Origin: Patescibacteria group bacterium | GTDB lineage: Bacteria > Patescibacteriota > Patescibacteriia > UBA9934 > GWF2-40-263 | DNA length: 49,635 bases | Assembly: GCA_018814025.1 (NCBI GenBank) | Contig: JAHJAM010000014.1 | Location: 1 to 49,635, forward strand | Direction of reading: 5' to 3' | Shown: positions 14,039 to 25,932 of the stretch, piece after piece | How the letters are laid out: each line of letters begins with the position of its first letter | Numbering within the stretch: the first letter of the stretch is position 1 | Program-made: the position numbers and the translations under genes | Notes under the pieces: model-generated | What the model saw: only the letters and a program-made list of their open reading frames with translations | What the model was told of the DNA's origin: nothing | Database searches by the model: none

Positions 14039-14059
14039 ATGTCAAAGAGTATTAGCCCC

Positions 14060-14095
14060 GACACGCCTAATAGACGGCCGTGCAATATATGTGTC
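14060..14095. repeat. 36-bp imperfect palindrome A1 (left flank of Cas2/PaaX-like gene 1)
   Basis: GACACGCCTAATAGACGGCCGTGCAATATATGTGTC; 27/36 identical to 14630-14665. Confidence 0.8.
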
Positions 14096-14631
14096 AAAAA
14101 AACAACATAAAACAAAGGCATTTGGCTAAGGGGTCAGTGGCCGCTTCATTACTGACTGATCTTGTTGATCAATTAGATCTCACGTTGACAGTGGGGTATA
14201 AGCCTGTTGCTGTAGCTCGGTATGGTCTCGACGGCGTTCTAAGGATGAGAAAGGCCAATGAATATAAACAAAGAAGACAAGCCCTTACCAGACTTCATCA
14301 AGGTAAGCTCATCAAAATAAGCAAAAATGCCGAAAATTATACAGTCGCTTTAACGGAATCTGGTCTAATCGAGAATTACCGACTTCAAGTACTCAATGCC
14401 GAAGAATTCGAGGATAACAGGTTTTGTATCGTGATCTTTGATGTCCCCGAAAGACACCGACGACTCCGAAGCCAGCTCAGATCTTTTTTAAAAGAAGCAG
14501 GTTTCCATCGTTTTCAACAAAGCGTCTGGATCTCACCATTTAATGCCACCAAACCGTTACTGGAGCTCTTCCGGGCATCTAATGCGAAAGGTTGGGTTAG
14601 AGTCTACACCGCCACCGAGGAGATCATCTGA
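14089..14631 (+). CDS. PaaX-like/Cas2-like protein (wHTH plus Cas2/VapD-type ferredoxin fold), copy 1
   Basis: LTESG wing motif, then IVIFDVPE..R..LR..L...GF..FQQSVW; AT-richer than neighbours; alternative start GTG 14080. Confidence 0.85.
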   Translation: MCQKNNIKQRHLAKGSVAASLLTDLVDQLDLTLTVGYKPVAVARYGLDGVLRMRKANEYKQRRQALTRLHQGKLIKISKNAENYTVALTESGLIENYRLQVLNAEEFEDNRFCIVIFDVPERHRRLRSQLRSFLKEAGFHRFQQSVWISPFNATKPLLELFRASNAKGWVRVYTATEEII

Positions 14632-14665
14632 CACAACTAATGAACGGTCGTCTAATATGTGTGAC
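14630..14665. repeat. 36-bp imperfect palindrome A2 (right flank of gene 1)
   Basis: GACACAACTAATGAACGGTCGTCTAATATGTGTGAC, overlapping the stop TGA. Confidence 0.8.
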
Positions 14666-14679
14666 ACTTTATTAAATGT

Positions 14680-20789: not shown

Positions 20790-22094
20790 ATGAAACTCCT
20801 AATCCAAAAACTTCTCATTTGGCTCTCCAAGCGCATTATCCGCCGGCATCAGCCCATTATCGTAGCCGTCACCGGTTCCGTGGGTAAAACCTCCACCCGC
20901 AACGCTATCGCTGCGGTTTTGGAGTCGAGCTTCCGTTTGCGAACCAACTTTGCCAATTACAACAATGAATTTGGCGTTCCCTTGACGATCATTGGCGCGG
21001 TTTCGCCGGAAAAGTCATTGATCGGTTGGCTCAAGGTAATTTTTCATGGCGCCAAGCAAACTCTTTTCAAAGATCAGACTTATCCGCAGCTTTTAGTCCT
21101 GGAATTTGGCGCTGATCGGCCCGGCGATATTGGCGCTTTATGTGATATCGCCCAGCCGGATGTGGCCGTGCTCACCGTGGTTTCTCCGGTTCACGCGGCC
21201 AATTACGCATCCTTTGAACAATTAATCGATGAAAAAACCACCATTATTCGCCGAGTTAAGCCCGGCGGTCTGGCGGTTTTAAATGCTGATGATGCGCGTG
21301 TGCTTGATCATCGACTGGAGGCGCCGGCGCGCGTTCTGACCTACGGTTTCAGTCAAGCCGCGGATCTGCGTGGTTTCAATTATCATTTGGAAACTCGGCA
21401 GGATTTTACCTTTGATCCGGGCGAACAGTTTGCGGAAACTCACTTTGAAGTCGAATTTGAAGAAGAAACCATGCCTGCCAACCTGCCCAATCTCATTGGC
21501 CGGGCTCAAGTCAGCGCCGCTTTGGGCGCTTTGGCCGTGGGCCGCCATTTTGATTTGTCTTTGGAAGACATGATTCCGCGCTTGGCCAAAATTTTGCCCC
21601 AAGCCGGGCGCATGAACCCGCTGCCCGGCATCAAGAAATGTTTAGTGCTCGATGACACGTATAATGCCGCGCCCGCGTCCGTGCGAGCCGCATTGGAGGT
21701 TTTGGGTCAGTTCACGCCTCAAGGCGATGGCCAGCGGATTGCCGCCTTGGGCCAGATGGCCGAGCTGGGCCGCTACAGCCGCGATGAACATCGTTTGATT
21801 GGCCACCAGGTCGCGGAAATCGGCGTCTCATTATTGGTCACGGTGGGGGAGGAAGCTCTGGGTATTCGCGCAGGCGCCATCGAAGCCGGTTTAACCGATG
21901 GCCAGTGCGCTCATTTTGATAACTCGGAAGAAGCCGGCCGTCATTTAGATAAAGAAGTCCGCACCGGCGACATTGTCTTGGTTAAGGGCTCCCAATCCGC
22001 GCGCATGGAAAAAGTGGTCAAAGATTTAATGGCCGAGCCATTGCGTGCCGAACAGCTCCTCGTCCGGCAATCCGAAAAGTGGCTGAAGACATAG
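20790..22094 (+). CDS. murF: UDP-N-acetylmuramoyl-tripeptide--D-Ala-D-Ala ligase
   Basis: VTGSVGKTST, NNEFGVP, DDTYNA, MAELG, VKGS. Confidence 0.93.
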   Translation: MKLLIQKLLIWLSKRIIRRHQPIIVAVTGSVGKTSTRNAIAAVLESSFRLRTNFANYNNEFGVPLTIIGAVSPEKSLIGWLKVIFHGAKQTLFKDQTYPQLLVLEFGADRPGDIGALCDIAQPDVAVLTVVSPVHAANYASFEQLIDEKTTIIRRVKPGGLAVLNADDARVLDHRLEAPARVLTYGFSQAADLRGFNYHLETRQDFTFDPGEQFAETHFEVEFEEETMPANLPNLIGRAQVSAALGALAVGRHFDLSLEDMIPRLAKILPQAGRMNPLPGIKKCLVLDDTYNAAPASVRAALEVLGQFTPQGDGQRIAALGQMAELGRYSRDEHRLIGHQVAEIGVSLLVTVGEEALGIRAGAIEAGLTDGQCAHFDNSEEAGRHLDKEVRTGDIVLVKGSQSARMEKVVKDLMAEPLRAEQLLVRQSEKWLKT

Positions 22095-22112
22095 TTTTCC
22101 ACAAAACACTCA

Positions 22113-22188
22113 TTGACAAACACCAAAAATTCTGATGTAATTACCAAACAATAAGACAACTCCACCCATTACAAACGGGTGGAGTTTT
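22113..22188 (+). promoter_or_regulatory. Promoter followed by a terminator-like hairpin upstream of Cas2/PaaX-like gene 2
   Basis: TTGACA-17-TGTAAT, then AACTCCACCC-ATTACAAAC-GGGTGGAGTTTT. Confidence 0.55.
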
Positions 22189-22237
22189 GTATCTCCAAAG
22201 CAATAGCACTAAAGCAATAACACCAAATGTTTATCAA

Positions 22238-22269
22238 ACGGCATTCTTTACGATCGTAAAGAATGCCGT
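22238..22269. repeat. Perfect 32-bp palindrome B1 (left flank of gene 2)
   Basis: ACGGCATTCTTTACGA|TCGTAAAGAATGCCGT; contains ATG 22263. Confidence 0.92.
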
Positions 22270-22823
22270 CAGATCATATGAAGAGATTATTGGAAAAAAT
22301 AAAACGAGTTGCAAGAGTATCTGAAAGTGTGGCCTCTGATTTGTTGGTGGAGTTAGATTATTACCTTGATGGAATCGGAAAGATGAAATCCGTTATTTTC
22401 GCATGTAATCCTCAAGGGCTTGAGATGTTCAATGAAATAAAGGCAGTACAGGAACGGAGAAGGATCAGGGAGGCTGTACGTCTATTAGAGCAAAAGAAAC
22501 TGATCAAGATAAAAAAGAAAGCGAAAAGAATTGAACTTTCCTTAACAAAAAAGGGGAAATTAGAATCTGTCCGACATCAAATTATTTCAGAAGATCGACA
22601 GCTACCCAAAGACGAAGTGTGTATTGTGGTCTTTGATATTCCAGAACATGTCCGCAAGATTCGCGATGAGCTACGTTGGTTTCTAAAAAGTGCGGGTTTC
22701 GTACAATTACAGCGCAGCGTATGGATTACCACTGCCGATACGATAAGACCACTAAATATTCTATTGAAAGAGATGAAAGTTAACAATTGGATTTATATTT
22801 TCCAGGGTAGATCAGTAATTTGA
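22263..22823 (+). CDS. PaaX-like/Cas2-like protein, copy 2
   Basis: LTKKG wing motif, IVVFDIPE..RKIRDELR..L...GFVQLQRSVW; AT-rich. Confidence 0.85.
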   Translation: MPSDHMKRLLEKIKRVARVSESVASDLLVELDYYLDGIGKMKSVIFACNPQGLEMFNEIKAVQERRRIREAVRLLEQKKLIKIKKKAKRIELSLTKKGKLESVRHQIISEDRQLPKDEVCIVVFDIPEHVRKIRDELRWFLKSAGFVQLQRSVWITTADTIRPLNILLKEMKVNNWIYIFQGRSVI

Positions 22824-22826
22824 GCA

Positions 22827-22860
22827 TACGGTAAACTTCACGATCGTAAAGTTTACCGTA
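22827..22860. repeat. 34-bp palindrome B2 with one mismatch (right flank of gene 2)
   Basis: TACGGTAAACTTCACGA|TCGTAAAGTTTACCGTA, 3 nt after the stop codon. Confidence 0.92.
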
Positions 22861-22953
22861 CGATGATTTTGTAGGGTTTGAATCCCCATGGGTGGTGCAT
22901 TGAGAATAGATTGTACACACGGGTTTAAATTCTTGACCGAAAGCGACAGCTAG

Positions 22954-22982
22954 AAAAAACTCGGGCCAATGGCCCGAGTTTT
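22954..22982. terminator. Bidirectional terminator
   Basis: AAAAAACTCGGGCC-AAT-GGCCCGAGTTTT. Confidence 0.8.
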
Positions 22983-22994
22983 ACTGTTGATCAT

Positions 22995-23483
22995 TTACGC
23001 CAGCCACGGATACTTTTTCACCAGTGTTTGCTTTTGCCATTTCTTTCCCAATCCCAGATACATGCCCGCATCCACATAAACCAGCATGAGCAAGATCAAA
23101 GCATTCAATACATGCTCGTCGAAGAATGGATTATGTTCAGGTGGAATAAATCCAGCCAAATACATCAGTGCGAACATTAAGACTCCAGCATAACCAGCAA
23201 CTTTAACTCCTATACCCAGAATCAAAGCCACACCGATTCCTAAAAGCCCCAGCATAAACAACCAATCCACAATCGGATTGCCAGCCAGGCTTTGGAAAAT
23301 ATCCGCAAACGGGCCTTTAGTGCCATAAGTTAAGAAGCCAGTAGTAGGGGAGCCACCCGCAATCCAAGCCTGATCTGCTGGTGTTGCAAAACCCCAACCG
23401 AACATCTTGTCTAAAAATGACCACAGAAACACCCAACCCATTCCCAGGCGGATAATTCCAAATAATAATTTATCTTTTTTCAT
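22995..23483 (-). CDS. DoxX/DoxD-family membrane protein
   Basis: RLGMGWVFLWSFLDK..GGSPTTGFL..DWLFMLGLLGIG..NPFFDEH. Confidence 0.85.
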   Translation of the reverse strand: MKKDKLLFGIIRLGMGWVFLWSFLDKMFGWGFATPADQAWIAGGSPTTGFLTYGTKGPFADIFQSLAGNPIVDWLFMLGLLGIGVALILGIGVKVAGYAGVLMFALMYLAGFIPPEHNPFFDEHVLNALILLMLVYVDAGMYLGLGKKWQKQTLVKKYPWLA

Positions 23484-23682
23484 AAAATAGCTATTGAATA
23501 ATAATTTCATTATACAGTGAAACCAATATATTCCCTACAGGGGAATAACTGATTTTAAGTGGTTGACAAAGCCAAAAAAAATCTGTAAACTCAATTTATA
23601 AATTGCGTGCAAAGAACGCGGCCATGGGCCGTTTTTTTATTTGCCTCCAACTGTATCCATTTTTGATGCCAGGCTTTCAATT

Positions 23683-25821
23683 ATGCTCAAACTTTTAAAA
23701 ACTCACTTCGGTTATGATTCCTTCCGGCCGTTGCAAAAGGAAATTATTGACACAGTTCTCTCCGGCCAGGACACTCTTGTCCTAATGCCAACCGGGGGAG
23801 GGAAGTCTTTGTGTTTCCAATTACCAGCCCTGGCTTTGCCCGGCCTCGCCCTCGTTATTTCCCCACTAATTGCCCTAATGAAGGACCAAGTAGATACATT
23901 GTGCGCCAACGGCATCTCAGCTGCATTAATTAACAGTTCAATCACCCCCAAAGAACAGGCGCAAGTCATGCAACGCGCCTCTGCCGGTGATCTCAAAATC
24001 CTCTACCTCGCCCCAGAACGTCTTGGGTCATACGGTTTTTCCGAATTCCTCGATTCGCTCAATGTCAGCCTCATCGCCATCGATGAAGCCCATTGTATTT
24101 CAGAATGGGGCCATGATTTTCGCCCGGAATACCGCAACCTTTGGCATCTGCGCAAAAAACTTTCAAAAGCCCCAGTCATCGCCCTCACTGCCACCGCCAC
24201 CCCGCGCGTGCGCCGAGATATTTTAAGCCAGCTGGGAATGGAACAAGCATCAGTTTTTGTCTCAAGTTTCAATCGGGCCAACCTTCATTACAGCGTCCGT
24301 CCCAAATACCAAGCTTTTGATCAACTGGTTGAGCTTTTACAATCACACAAAGACGAATCAATCATTGTGTACTGTTTCTCGCGTAAGAACACAGAGGAAA
24401 CAGCCAAAAAACTCACTCAAGCCGGTTTGCCAGCCTTGCCTTATCACGCCGGTCTTAACAAAGACGTCCGACAACAAACCCAAGAGCGGTTCATTCGCGA
24501 CGAAGTCCCGATCATTGTGGCCACCATTGCTTTTGGCATGGGAATCGATAAACCCGATGTGCGCTTGGTCGTTCACTTGGATCTGCCCAAAACCATCGAA
24601 AGCTACTATCAAGAAACCGGTCGTACCGGCCGCGATGGCTTGCCTGGTGAATGCATTCTATTTTATTCATATGCTGATCGACGAAAGCATGAGTTCTTCA
24701 TCAATCAAATCGAAGAACCCGACGAACGAGCCCAGGCCATGCGCAAGCTCGAAGACATGATTATCTATTGCCAAACACCAGCTTGTCGCCGTTTTTGTTT
24801 GTTAACCTATTTCGGTGAAGATCATCAAGCCACCACTTGCGATGCTTGTGATAATTGCCTTAACCCGCCGGTTGAATATGTTGATGCGACCGAAATTTCC
24901 CAGAAAATCCTCTCAGCCGTTCTGCGGACAGGGGAGCGATTCGGTATGGCTCATGTTTGTGATGTTCTGCGCGGTTCAAAGAAAAAGCGAGTTATCGAAT
25001 TAGGCCACCATCAACTCTCAGTCTTTGGCATCGCCAAAAACCTCCCCATACCCGCTTTGCGCGAATACATCGAGGGTTTAAAAAAACTCAGCTACTTACA
25101 ACAAAATTTAGGAGAATATCCAACTCTCCAAGTCACCATCAAAGGAAAACAAGCCCTAATCAAAAACGAATCAATCCTCTTACCACCACTGACAGTGATT
25201 AAAAAAGTTCTCACCCGCCCATCCGGAACAACTCTTGAATACAATCTCGAAACATTCGAAAAACTCCGCGCCCTGCGCAAACAAATCGCCGACCAACAAA
25301 ACGTCCCGCCCTTCGTCATCTTCGGCGATAAAACTCTTCACGAAATGGCCTATTACTTACCATCAACGCTCGAAGCCTTCTCGCATCTCTTTGGTGTAGG
25401 AAAACAAAAACTCGAAGCCTTCGGACAACAATTCATCGACTGCATCGCCATCCAAACAGCTGAACAAAATCTCAAAGAAAAACCAGTACCAAGAAAAGCC
25501 TCACTCTCAATCACCAACTCACCCCCACAAACCAGCTCAACTCTTAATGAAACAAAAGAACTCTTAGAACAAAAACTTTCCATCAAGGAGATCGCCAAAC
25601 AAAGAGGATTAAGCCCAGGCACCATCATCCAACACCTTGAAAAACTCCTCCAAGCAGACGAACTCCCAGACATCACTCACCTAAAGCCGAAAGACAAAGA
25701 TTTCCAAAAAATCCAAAAAGCCTTCAACAAATCAAAAAACAAAACCCTAACCGCCATCTTCAAACAACTAGACGAGGAGTATTCCTACGATGAATTACGC
25801 CTAGCTAGAATATTCCTATAG
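23683..25821 (+). CDS. recQ: ATP-dependent DNA helicase RecQ (RQC, HRDC and C-terminal HTH domains)
   Basis: FGYDSFRP, PTGGGKS, DEAHC, TATAT, QETGR, CDACDNC, VPPFVIFGD. Confidence 0.95.
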   Translation: MLKLLKTHFGYDSFRPLQKEIIDTVLSGQDTLVLMPTGGGKSLCFQLPALALPGLALVISPLIALMKDQVDTLCANGISAALINSSITPKEQAQVMQRASAGDLKILYLAPERLGSYGFSEFLDSLNVSLIAIDEAHCISEWGHDFRPEYRNLWHLRKKLSKAPVIALTATATPRVRRDILSQLGMEQASVFVSSFNRANLHYSVRPKYQAFDQLVELLQSHKDESIIVYCFSRKNTEETAKKLTQAGLPALPYHAGLNKDVRQQTQERFIRDEVPIIVATIAFGMGIDKPDVRLVVHLDLPKTIESYYQETGRTGRDGLPGECILFYSYADRRKHEFFINQIEEPDERAQAMRKLEDMIIYCQTPACRRFCLLTYFGEDHQATTCDACDNCLNPPVEYVDATEISQKILSAVLRTGERFGMAHVCDVLRGSKKKRVIELGHHQLSVFGIAKNLPIPALREYIEGLKKLSYLQQNLGEYPTLQVTIKGKQALIKNESILLPPLTVIKKVLTRPSGTTLEYNLETFEKLRALRKQIADQQNVPPFVIFGDKTLHEMAYYLPSTLEAFSHLFGVGKQKLEAFGQQFIDCIAIQTAEQNLKEKPVPRKASLSITNSPPQTSSTLNETKELLEQKLSIKEIAKQRGLSPGTIIQHLEKLLQADELPDITHLKPKDKDFQKIQKAFNKSKNKTLTAIFKQLDEEYSYDELRLARIFL

Positions 25822-25857
25822 AAATCAAAACACCTCCGCCAATTGGCGAAGGTGTTT

Positions 25858-25932
25858 TGGTGACCCCACGGGGAATCGAACCCCGATTTCCAGGATGAGA
25901 ACCTGGCGTCCTAACCGTTAGACGATGGGGCC
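25858..25932 (-). tRNA. tRNA-Glu(CTC)
   Basis: GGCCCCATCGTCTAACGGTTAGGACG, anticodon arm CCAGG-TTCTCAT-CCTGG, GGTTCGATTCC, CCA end. Confidence 0.97.

Follow-up and report, generated by a model that had tools for sequence, protein, structure and literature searches.

Repression through two operators is a familiar arrangement: in the lac (O1/O2), gal (OE/OI) and deo systems, an operator at the promoter is joined by a second one hundreds of base pairs (bp) downstream, and both are bound by the same repressor. The closest described relative of the system reported here is PaaX. According to the accessible part of PMC9493321, Escherichia coli PaaX binds the 39-bp inverted repeat TGATTC(N27)GAATCA and represses its own promoter; the structure 3L09 comprises a winged-helix domain, a dimerisation motif in the middle domain and a C-terminal domain, and inducer binding is assigned to the C-terminal domain of PaaX. 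Palindromes can also be reshaped by replication itself, and the available part of PMC7202029 describes quasipalindrome template switching in E. coli, by which imperfect inverted repeats become more perfect. Here we analyse a stretch of 49,635 nucleotides (nt) from a Patescibacteria group bacterium (contig JAHJAM010000014.1; the whole stretch is called the window), in which two long palindromes, B1 and B2, bracket a gene (gene 2) for a short protein related to PaaX, termed mini-PaaX. Comparisons of sites and proteins lead us to propose, with a probability of roughly 0.55, that B1 and B2 are the cognate operators of a dimeric mini-PaaX encoded between them.

B1 is identical to its reverse complement, its 16-nt arms meeting without a loop, and ends 8 nt before the ATG of gene 2. 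B2 starts 5 nt past the TGA stop codon (22821-22823). Its single mismatched pair joins C at position 12 to A at position 21 (C/A on the + strand, G·T on the - strand), and its arms reach 17 nt once one flanking pair is added. B1 is the longest perfect palindrome of the window, the runner-up having 10-nt arms, and the longest arms in 20 mononucleotide shuffles of the window measured 6-10 nt. The two sites differ at seven positions (5, 7, 8, 12, 25, 26 and 28). Three pairs are compensated, with C-G replaced by T-A at 5/28 and T-A by A-T at both 7/26 and 8/25, and position 12 is the sole one-sided change. For seven random changes in 32 positions, the probability of three symmetric pairs is 0.0043, or about 1.6e-4 when these pairs must also be complementary, both figures having been computed after the pattern was seen. 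At no more than one mismatch, the 16-nt core occurs in the window only as B1 and B2; a third match has three mismatches, against a chance expectation of 0.14 matches, and three matches were reached in none of 100 shuffles. Among the 92 CGATCG or CGGCCG hexamers of the window, palindromic flanks are found only at B1 (13 of 13 flank pairs) and B2 (12 of 13), the remainder showing at most 7 of 13. Both palindromes and their three compensated pairs had been pointed out in a preliminary description made from the letters of this stretch, and they are confirmed at the positions given in Table 1. The same description held that the sites, having no loop and no adjacent U tract, are not intrinsic terminators, with which our terminator scan agrees, as it called neither B1 nor B2 terminator-like. 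An intrinsic terminator would have a G+C-rich stem, a loop of 3-8 nt and a U tract beside it.

The protein encoded between the two sites matches the Pfam family PaaX_M well above the cutoff (Table 1). An upstream in-frame ATG at 22263 falls within B1, and homologues begin at the position of 22278. The protein barely passes the cas2 model TIGR01573 (27.4 bits, cutoff 24.5) and remains far under the cutoff of the PaaX model TIGR02277 (20.2 bits against 264.55), and the Pfam model of the PaaX N-terminus gave no match. In an alignment of 133 relatives, PaaX_M matches all 133, CRISPR_Cas2 (PF09827) 67 and a winged-helix model 43, while PaaX_C (PF08223) matches none of the 133. The AlphaFold2 model, built from 133 relatives (predicted local distance difference test, pLDDT, 90.7; predicted template modelling score, pTM, 0.83), shows a winged helix (helices at 47-53 and 57-72, wing at 76-89) as part of a helical N-terminus, then a linker helix and, at residues 113-178, a Cas2-like β-α-β-β-α-β domain; the chain ends three residues past the last strand of this domain. 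Foldseek ranks E. coli PaaX first (8A39, 184 columns, E = 1e-4), followed by type II-A Cas2 chains, which match the C-terminal 70 residues, and then by the PaaX-like 3L09. A weak match of the family profile to ArsR-type winged-helix repressors covers residues 12-102 (E = 0.013-0.02). Residue D120, which aligns with the conserved Asp of Cas2 strand β1, is invariant in the 133 relatives; we take the β1 Asp to be the catalytic residue of Cas2 nucleases. Judging from these matches and the model, the gene 2 protein is a truncated form of the PaaX type, with a predicted DNA-binding winged helix and Cas2-like dimerisation domain and without an effector domain. By analogy with its homologue PaaX, it would form a dimer.

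Other searches place the protein in a large family. Its closest relatives are 58-61% identical; a word-indexed protein search returned one relative (58% identity) and a profile search eight, which are called 'hypothetical protein' where named. At E <= 1e-3 the family comprises 1719 representative clusters, spread over several Patescibacteria candidate phyla, and the sources call its members hypothetical or Cas2. A phmmer search of the Protein Data Bank with the single protein gave no match, PHROGs gave no meaningful match, and PADLOC returned only Cas2 models together with weak matches to LmuC/CARF winged-helix models. The HUH family was not matched, and the alignment of relatives holds no invariant His or Tyr. 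A paper on TTHA0973 (PMC6651687), the accessible part of which concerns the TetR-type PaaR, was set aside.

The arrangement recurs throughout this family. From 599 pattern matches in species-representative genomes, we collected at least 31 homologous loci (labelled L with a number), whose proteins are at most 43% identical to the gene 2 protein. A palindrome or quasipalindrome centred on CGATCG or CGGCCG lies at the stop codon in 31 of 31 loci, as it does at the paralogue in the window, and a partner site lies at the gene start in 30 of 31 (none was found upstream in L024, and those of L017 and L021 are weak), both counts admitting degenerate copies. A strict scan of 183 kb for loopless palindromes (arms of at least 9 nt, at most one mismatch) yielded 38, of which 22 are at gene ends and 16 elsewhere with assorted centres. 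The centres of 21 of the 22 gene-end palindromes are CGATCG (15), CGGCCG (5) and CGGCCA (1), and the gene-end palindromes occur in 18 loci, or 19 with L025, whose site the distance rule classed as far. Four loci carry a third site copy. With a gene and its sites taken together as a module, the distance from the downstream dyad back to the first stop-codon base is 17-24 nt in 17 of 31 modules; relative to that dyad, this base falls between -34 and +4 in 30 of 31. An in-frame ATG is found 12 nt past the upstream dyad in 7 of 31. The presence of this layout in 31 independent public assemblies, and twice in the window, reduces a chance resemblance or an assembly fold-back artefact to a negligible probability; moreover, the palindromes are short and lie in unique sequence around an intact open reading frame (ORF).

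An ungapped alignment of 70 sites gave the consensus CA-N-A-N7-CGATCG-N4-A-N2-T-N-TG, with CA-N10-CGR as the half-site. Counted outward from the dyad, the first three positions hardly vary (A or G at 1, G at 2, C at 3), positions 4-7 are free and positions 8-11 rich in A/T, and A at 13 and C at 14 are each present in about 65% of half-sites. Identity between upstream and downstream copies is 0.67-0.75 at 3-20 nt from the dyad and falls to 0.25-0.33 past 20 nt, and in the best copy per locus at least 23 of 32 are paired at each position out to 19; the site is therefore a discrete unit of about 38-40 bp. The longest perfect palindromes measure 46 bp (L018) and 40 bp (L016 and L030), with arms of up to 23 nt. 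AT occupies the two central positions in 58 of the 70 sites and GC in 8, the remaining 4 being mixed or different. Modules of the GC type are scattered on the protein tree beside sisters of the AT type (supports 0.905, 0.895, 0.80 and 0.67), and one-sided intermediates occur in the downstream site of the second module of the window (A2), the downstream site of L010 and the upstream site of L024. Arm mismatches on the sense strand are G·T in 45 cases and A·C in 40, with no strand bias, and loci with 25-45% identical proteins share conserved bases at about one helical turn from the dyad. Because the central bases covary, G·T is not favoured, half-site bases are conserved and ordinary terminators stand next to the sites, the symmetry points to duplex DNA read by a symmetric partner, putatively a dimer, rather than to an RNA hairpin or an attC-like site.

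These features bear directly on the possibility that the palindromes act in the transcript, as 5′ and 3′ hairpins stabilising the mRNA, as sites of RNase III-type processing that would release it from read-through transcripts, as terminators without a U tract or as protein-bound RNA. Both sites do fold as long hairpins: B1 reaches -23.1 kcal/mol as single-stranded RNA (z = -6.2) and -15.3 as DNA, and the + strand of B2 reaches -16.0 kcal/mol as RNA (z = -2.3). They lie exactly at the ends of the ORF, members of the Cas2 family have been deposited as endoribonuclease, and the upstream copy is usually the poorer palindrome, as expected if a full 5′ hairpin blocked translation. In a hairpin, however, the two central bases would form the loop and be unable to pair, yet they are self-complementary in 66 of 70 sites and have switched from AT to GC several times. 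The near-equal mismatch counts and the conservation of CA-N10-CGR within the would-be stem also speak against pairing in RNA, and the genome has canonical terminators right beside both sites (22158-22186 and 22956-22982). A TTTT run begins 8 nt beyond the stem of B2. Searches of Rfam, with a permissive E-value on 21900-23700 and the gathering threshold on the whole window, assigned no family to the sites and found two tRNAs elsewhere; a mir-234 match on B1 lay below threshold and was rejected as a chance match. Finally, 14 of 32 modules have a -10-like hexamer (TATAAT with at least 5 of 6 positions matched) that starts 21-31 nt before the upstream dyad on the gene strand, compared with 5 of 32 for the opposite strand; for the downstream dyad the counts are 2 of 33 and 0 of 33 (Fisher P = 4.7e-4 for 14/32 against 2/33). 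Boxes so placed would start the transcript inside the left arm, a classic position for a repressor. We therefore regard a function in RNA as unlikely.

The preliminary description had further supposed that symmetry itself is selected or actively regenerated, and symmetry is indeed kept beyond chance in the 70 homologous sites. Paired cells amount to 80.4% of 1330, compared with 51.6 ± 1.1% in column shuffles (0 of 500 reach the observed value), these paired percentages being somewhat inflated as the aligned sites were chosen partly for palindromy. When partners are slid by 1-3 columns, only 34-41% of cells are paired. The covariation score is 0.671 (0.191 in shuffles), with both-side changes at 17 of 19 pairs. 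Between related loci we counted 41 compensated, 15 one-sided and 7 double non-Watson-Crick changes, using the best copy per locus in eight locus pairs, three of which share members and are not independent. Within loci, 40 copy pairs contain 27 compensated pairs against 7.0 ± 2.5 in shuffles (0 of 5000), or 24 against 6.7 with the window excluded. Such pairs recur, with five in L012 and two each in L004, L009 and L026, and 67 double changes within loci break pairing.

In principle, symmetry of this kind could be a property of the DNA alone, with cruciforms, replication hairpins or self-perfecting palindromes travelling with the gene and having no specific partner. This would agree with arms that are perfectly symmetric over up to 23 nt and with compensated changes at positions that vary freely across the family, and template switching is established in E. 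coli by the accessible part of the study cited above. It leaves unexplained why the sites are found only at both ends of one gene family, why the centre and the CA at 13-14 are conserved where proteins are 25-45% identical, and why each paralogue has its own arm sequence, kept at both ends. We judge a purely structural role, independent of any protein, to be very improbable.

On the operator reading, one dimer would occupy each site of about 38-40 bp, with its dimerisation core over the conserved CGRYCG dyad and its two winged helices reaching the arms about one helical turn out, at CA-N10-CGR. The upstream site would cover the transcription start or the early transcribed region, such that the gene would repress its own expression. 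The downstream site at the stop codon might serve as an auxiliary operator, closing a loop of about 590 bp, or as a roadblock insulating the gene from its neighbours. As it is also kept next to a convergent gene, which is the situation in the window, it is not an operator of the neighbour. Symmetry would be selected since identical subunits face both half-sites, and quasipalindrome template switching would either revert a one-sided change or complete it to a compensated pair. This second process probably helps to keep near-perfect palindromes symmetric, and we propose it as the reason for the three paired changes between B1 and B2, which fall at positions that the protein may not read. For the gene 2 protein itself, we infer binding, dimerisation, repression and looping or blocking. 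Of the two kinds of site considered in the preliminary description, the dimer operator thus appears to fit best, given that the gene between the sites encodes a predicted PaaX-type winged helix and dimerisation domain.

Besides the choice of sites noted above, several observations weigh against this reading. Within loci, one-sided changes (204) far outnumber the 27 compensated pairs, and where both sides have changed, 27 of 48 remain Watson-Crick against 19.5 ± 3.1 expected, a modest excess (P = 0.013). Family-wide, the two sites of a locus are about as complementary to each other as to themselves (self 728, cross 710; self higher in 12 loci, lower in 12 and equal in 8). The window B pair, which together with L012 marks the extreme (both +7), is therefore an extreme case and not the rule. 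Arm divergence follows that of the winged-helix domain no better than that of the Cas2-like domain (r = 0.10 and 0.09, respectively; partial Mantel P = 0.10 and 0.15), and no -10/-35 match was found ahead of B1 itself. It is also unusual for a downstream operator to be pressed on the stop codon. Moreover, perfect symmetry over 16-23 bp per arm exceeds what a winged-helix dimer is expected to read, so that the model needs template switching as a second process. The preliminary description, which took asymmetric mutations in homologous sites as a sign against selected symmetry, is borne out by the family-wide covariation but not by the prevalence of one-sided changes within loci, nor by the second module of the window with its incompletely paired sites (Table 1). 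The compensated pairs of the window stand at one extreme of a range, asymmetric decay being frequent in the family.

The other kind of site named in the preliminary description, a recombination site resembling attC or telomere-resolvase sites, is best considered together with a wider proposal, in which the sites serve recombination or cutting of a self-contained cassette: crossover or cleavage at the CGRYCG dyad, catalysed either by the Cas2-like domain or by an enzyme of the host, would excise, integrate or invert the gene. The ORF is tightly bracketed, given the position of the stop codon and of starts in or near the right arm. In 31 of 32 cases, the G+C content of the module gene lies below that of the remaining locus, with a mean difference of 7.5 points (0.377 against 0.512 in the window). 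Some sites look like hybrids, one copy matching the reverse complement of the other at asymmetric positions (inverted versus direct, 37/32 in L026, 37/34 in L028, 35/31 in L015 and 33/17 for copies 2 and 3 of L017), and the invariance of D120 would suit a catalyst. Nevertheless, no integrase, transposase, resolvase, recombinase or Cas1 was found among the 59 neighbour ORFs (38 with a Pfam family, 21 without) or the 39 ORFs of the window (13 without). The cargo is always of one gene family, and no near-identical copies exist, paralogues of the same genome being only 35-62% identical. Modules are syntenic across genomes, as in L007/L015 and in L027/L030, where both lie between a gene of the metallo-β-lactamase fold and ndk. 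The two copies of a locus show no consistent orientation (15 direct, 15 inverted, 10 ties), perfect palindromes hold no orientation information, and a tblastn search of 72,556 plasmid records gave no match. Single-strand hairpin recombination sites in particular depend on strand-defining asymmetries, which the present sites do not have, and a likeness to attC or telomere-resolvase sites finds no support. Overall, we consider a recombination or cutting cassette improbable. Still less weight goes to its most specific form, in which a Cas2-like dimer itself would act on DNA at the CGRYCG dyad and thereby excise, invert or form hairpins in its own cassette.

A second module is present in the window at 14056-14669, with gene 1, a paralogue of gene 2 (35% identity; BLASTP E = 4e-25, 55 of 159 residues identical), between the sites A1 and A2 (Table 1). 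The candidate starts of gene 1 (GTG 14080 and ATG 14089) are in the right arm of A1, and A2 overlaps its stop codon. These sites, of the CGGCCG or CGGTCG type, are only quasi-palindromic. A2 has the same asymmetries as A1 and a mixed centre, one half being of the A type and the other of the G type. The three double changes between A1 and A2 fall at symmetric positions, and none of them is Watson-Crick. Paralogues carry different sites, A-type and B-type in the window and likewise L003 and L010 in one genome.

Table 1. Sites and genes of the two mini-PaaX modules; positions are those of the window.
Feature	Positions	Strand	Dyad	Centre	Description
A1, upstream site of module 1	14059-14096		14077/14078	ACGGCCGT	12/19 pairs Watson-Crick
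Gene 1, paralogous mini-PaaX	14080-14631	+			183 residues from GTG; PF20803, E 4.4e-16
A2, downstream site of module 1	14629-14666		14647/14648	ACGGTCGT	12/19 pairs Watson-Crick
B1, upstream site of module 2	22238-22269		22253/22254	ACGATCGT	perfect 32-bp palindrome
Gene 2, mini-PaaX	22278-22823	+			181 residues; PF20803 (PaaX_M), E 9.2e-15, 55 bits (cutoff 24)
B2, downstream site of module 2	22828-22859		22843/22844		32-bp palindrome, one mismatched pair

The neighbours of the modules are varied housekeeping genes (n = 59). No paa genes were found among them or among the 39 window ORFs, and array-like direct repeats were absent from the palindrome and repeat scans of the loci, in which no dedicated CRISPR finder was run. 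DNA repair or recombination genes make up 11 of the 59 immediate neighbours, a count for which no baseline frequency was computed. They encode RecG, a RadA-like protein, RecJ, RNase H, two PolB-exo-like exonucleases, a ComM-like protein, UvrC (twice), UvrA and Fpg, and are found at L007, L015, L018, L020, L022, L023, L024, L025 and L028. In the window, recQ (23641-25821) is one gene away from module 2. A loopless near-palindrome of 34 nt (25826-25859; centre CCAATTGG) lies between recQ and an oppositely oriented tRNA-Glu (25858-25932). It has 17-nt arms with one mismatch, its ends carrying an A run and a T run, and looks like a bidirectional terminator.

Individual loci depart from the common layout in several ways. 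In the related modules L022, L027 and L030, the sole nearby in-frame ATG (at 2962, 2812 and 2779, respectively) is 7 nt before the upstream dyad, and their ORFs would read through the palindrome centre, giving the N-terminus M-N/S-D-R. Tandem sites with dyads 46-48 bp apart follow the stop codon in L021 (3365/3412), L023 (3357/3403) and L024 (3379/3427), the next gene being uvrC in both L023 and L024. In L017 (3409-3529), each of two sites spaced by 77 bp matches the reverse complement of the other at 33 of 44 positions without being a palindrome itself, and the pair resembles two different palindromes with arms exchanged at the dyad. As for their sources, the record title is 'uncultured Gammaproteobacteria bacterium' for 12 of the 31 loci, and the others come from Uhrbacteria, Doudnabacteria, Patescibacteria group or 'bacterium' records. 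In the protein atlas, only Patescibacteria phyla are the commonest for clusters of the family, and the Gammaproteobacteria titles may be mislabels.

If the operator reading is true, many so-called orphan Cas2 genes would be minimal DNA-binding proteins of the PaaX type, each with a readable operator pair. This would correct CRISPR annotation in Patescibacteria genomes and provide a list of protein-site pairs with which the evolution of winged-helix specificity could be studied. The family would also offer a natural setting for separating selection on a dimer site from self-correction of a palindrome. Should a cutting cassette prove true instead, a free-living relative of Cas2 would have its own pair of palindromic repeats of about 36-40 bp, which bears on how Cas2 and CRISPR repeats came together. 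Full-text literature searches on PaaX- or Cas2-like proteins and palindromes, on CGATCG palindromes in Patescibacteria and on PaaX in the Candidate Phyla Radiation yielded no description of this layout, and a further search gave nothing relevant among the matches listed.

Among known systems, attC sites, the ends of IS200/IS605 elements and REP/RAYT elements share with the present sites imperfect palindromes right after an ORF, in which the sequence varies while the symmetry stays. However, attC sites and HUH-type ends need bulges and asymmetry, which mark strand and orientation, and an integrase or HUH enzyme, and the cargo of integrons is varied, whereas here the best copies show perfect symmetry, genes for such enzymes are absent nearby and PF20803 is the only cargo. 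IS200/IS605 and REP/RAYT elements also have an HUH/Y1 transposase with flanking hairpins and occur in many dispersed copies, compared with only two B-type sites in 49.6 kb here. Telomere-resolvase sites, perfect palindromes that a TelK/ResT-type enzyme processes on a linear replicon, differ in that the sites described here are internal and paired around one gene, with no enzyme of the TelK/ResT type among the annotated ORFs. Template-switch mutagenesis (the Ripley model, studied by the Lovett laboratory) produces compensated pairs without selection on each pair, according to the available part of PMC7202029. It is a mutational process and not a function, and would explain how symmetry is kept up but not why the sites are present.

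The likeness to Cas2 lies in the ferredoxin-like fold with the signature FD.P...R...SV(W/Y), which Foldseek superimposes with a root mean square deviation of 2.6-4.1 Å over about 70 columns. Cas2 forms dimers and associates with DNA, and many CRISPR repeats are also palindromic and, at about 36 bp, similar in length to the sites here. In contrast to Cas2, the mini-PaaX gene has no cas1 or repeat array among its annotated neighbours, its product is fused to a winged helix, and the gene itself takes the place of the 'spacer'. With the lac, gal and deo systems it shares a promoter-side site and a second site hundreds of bp downstream, proposed to be bound by the same repressor, but those repressors form tetramers or larger oligomers, and their second operator is not known to be tied to a stop codon. 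The closest comparison remains that with PaaX, in which an N-terminal winged helix likewise precedes a Cas2-like middle domain; its inverted-repeat operator measures 39 bp (accessible part of PMC9493321), against sites of about 38-40 bp here. Mini-PaaX differs from it in ending after the Cas2-like domain, without PaaX_C, and in having no paa genes nearby. Whereas the PaaX operator consists of only two 6-bp half-sites, the sites of the mini-PaaX modules are symmetric throughout, share a conserved CGRYCG centre and are placed one at each end of the regulator's own ORF.

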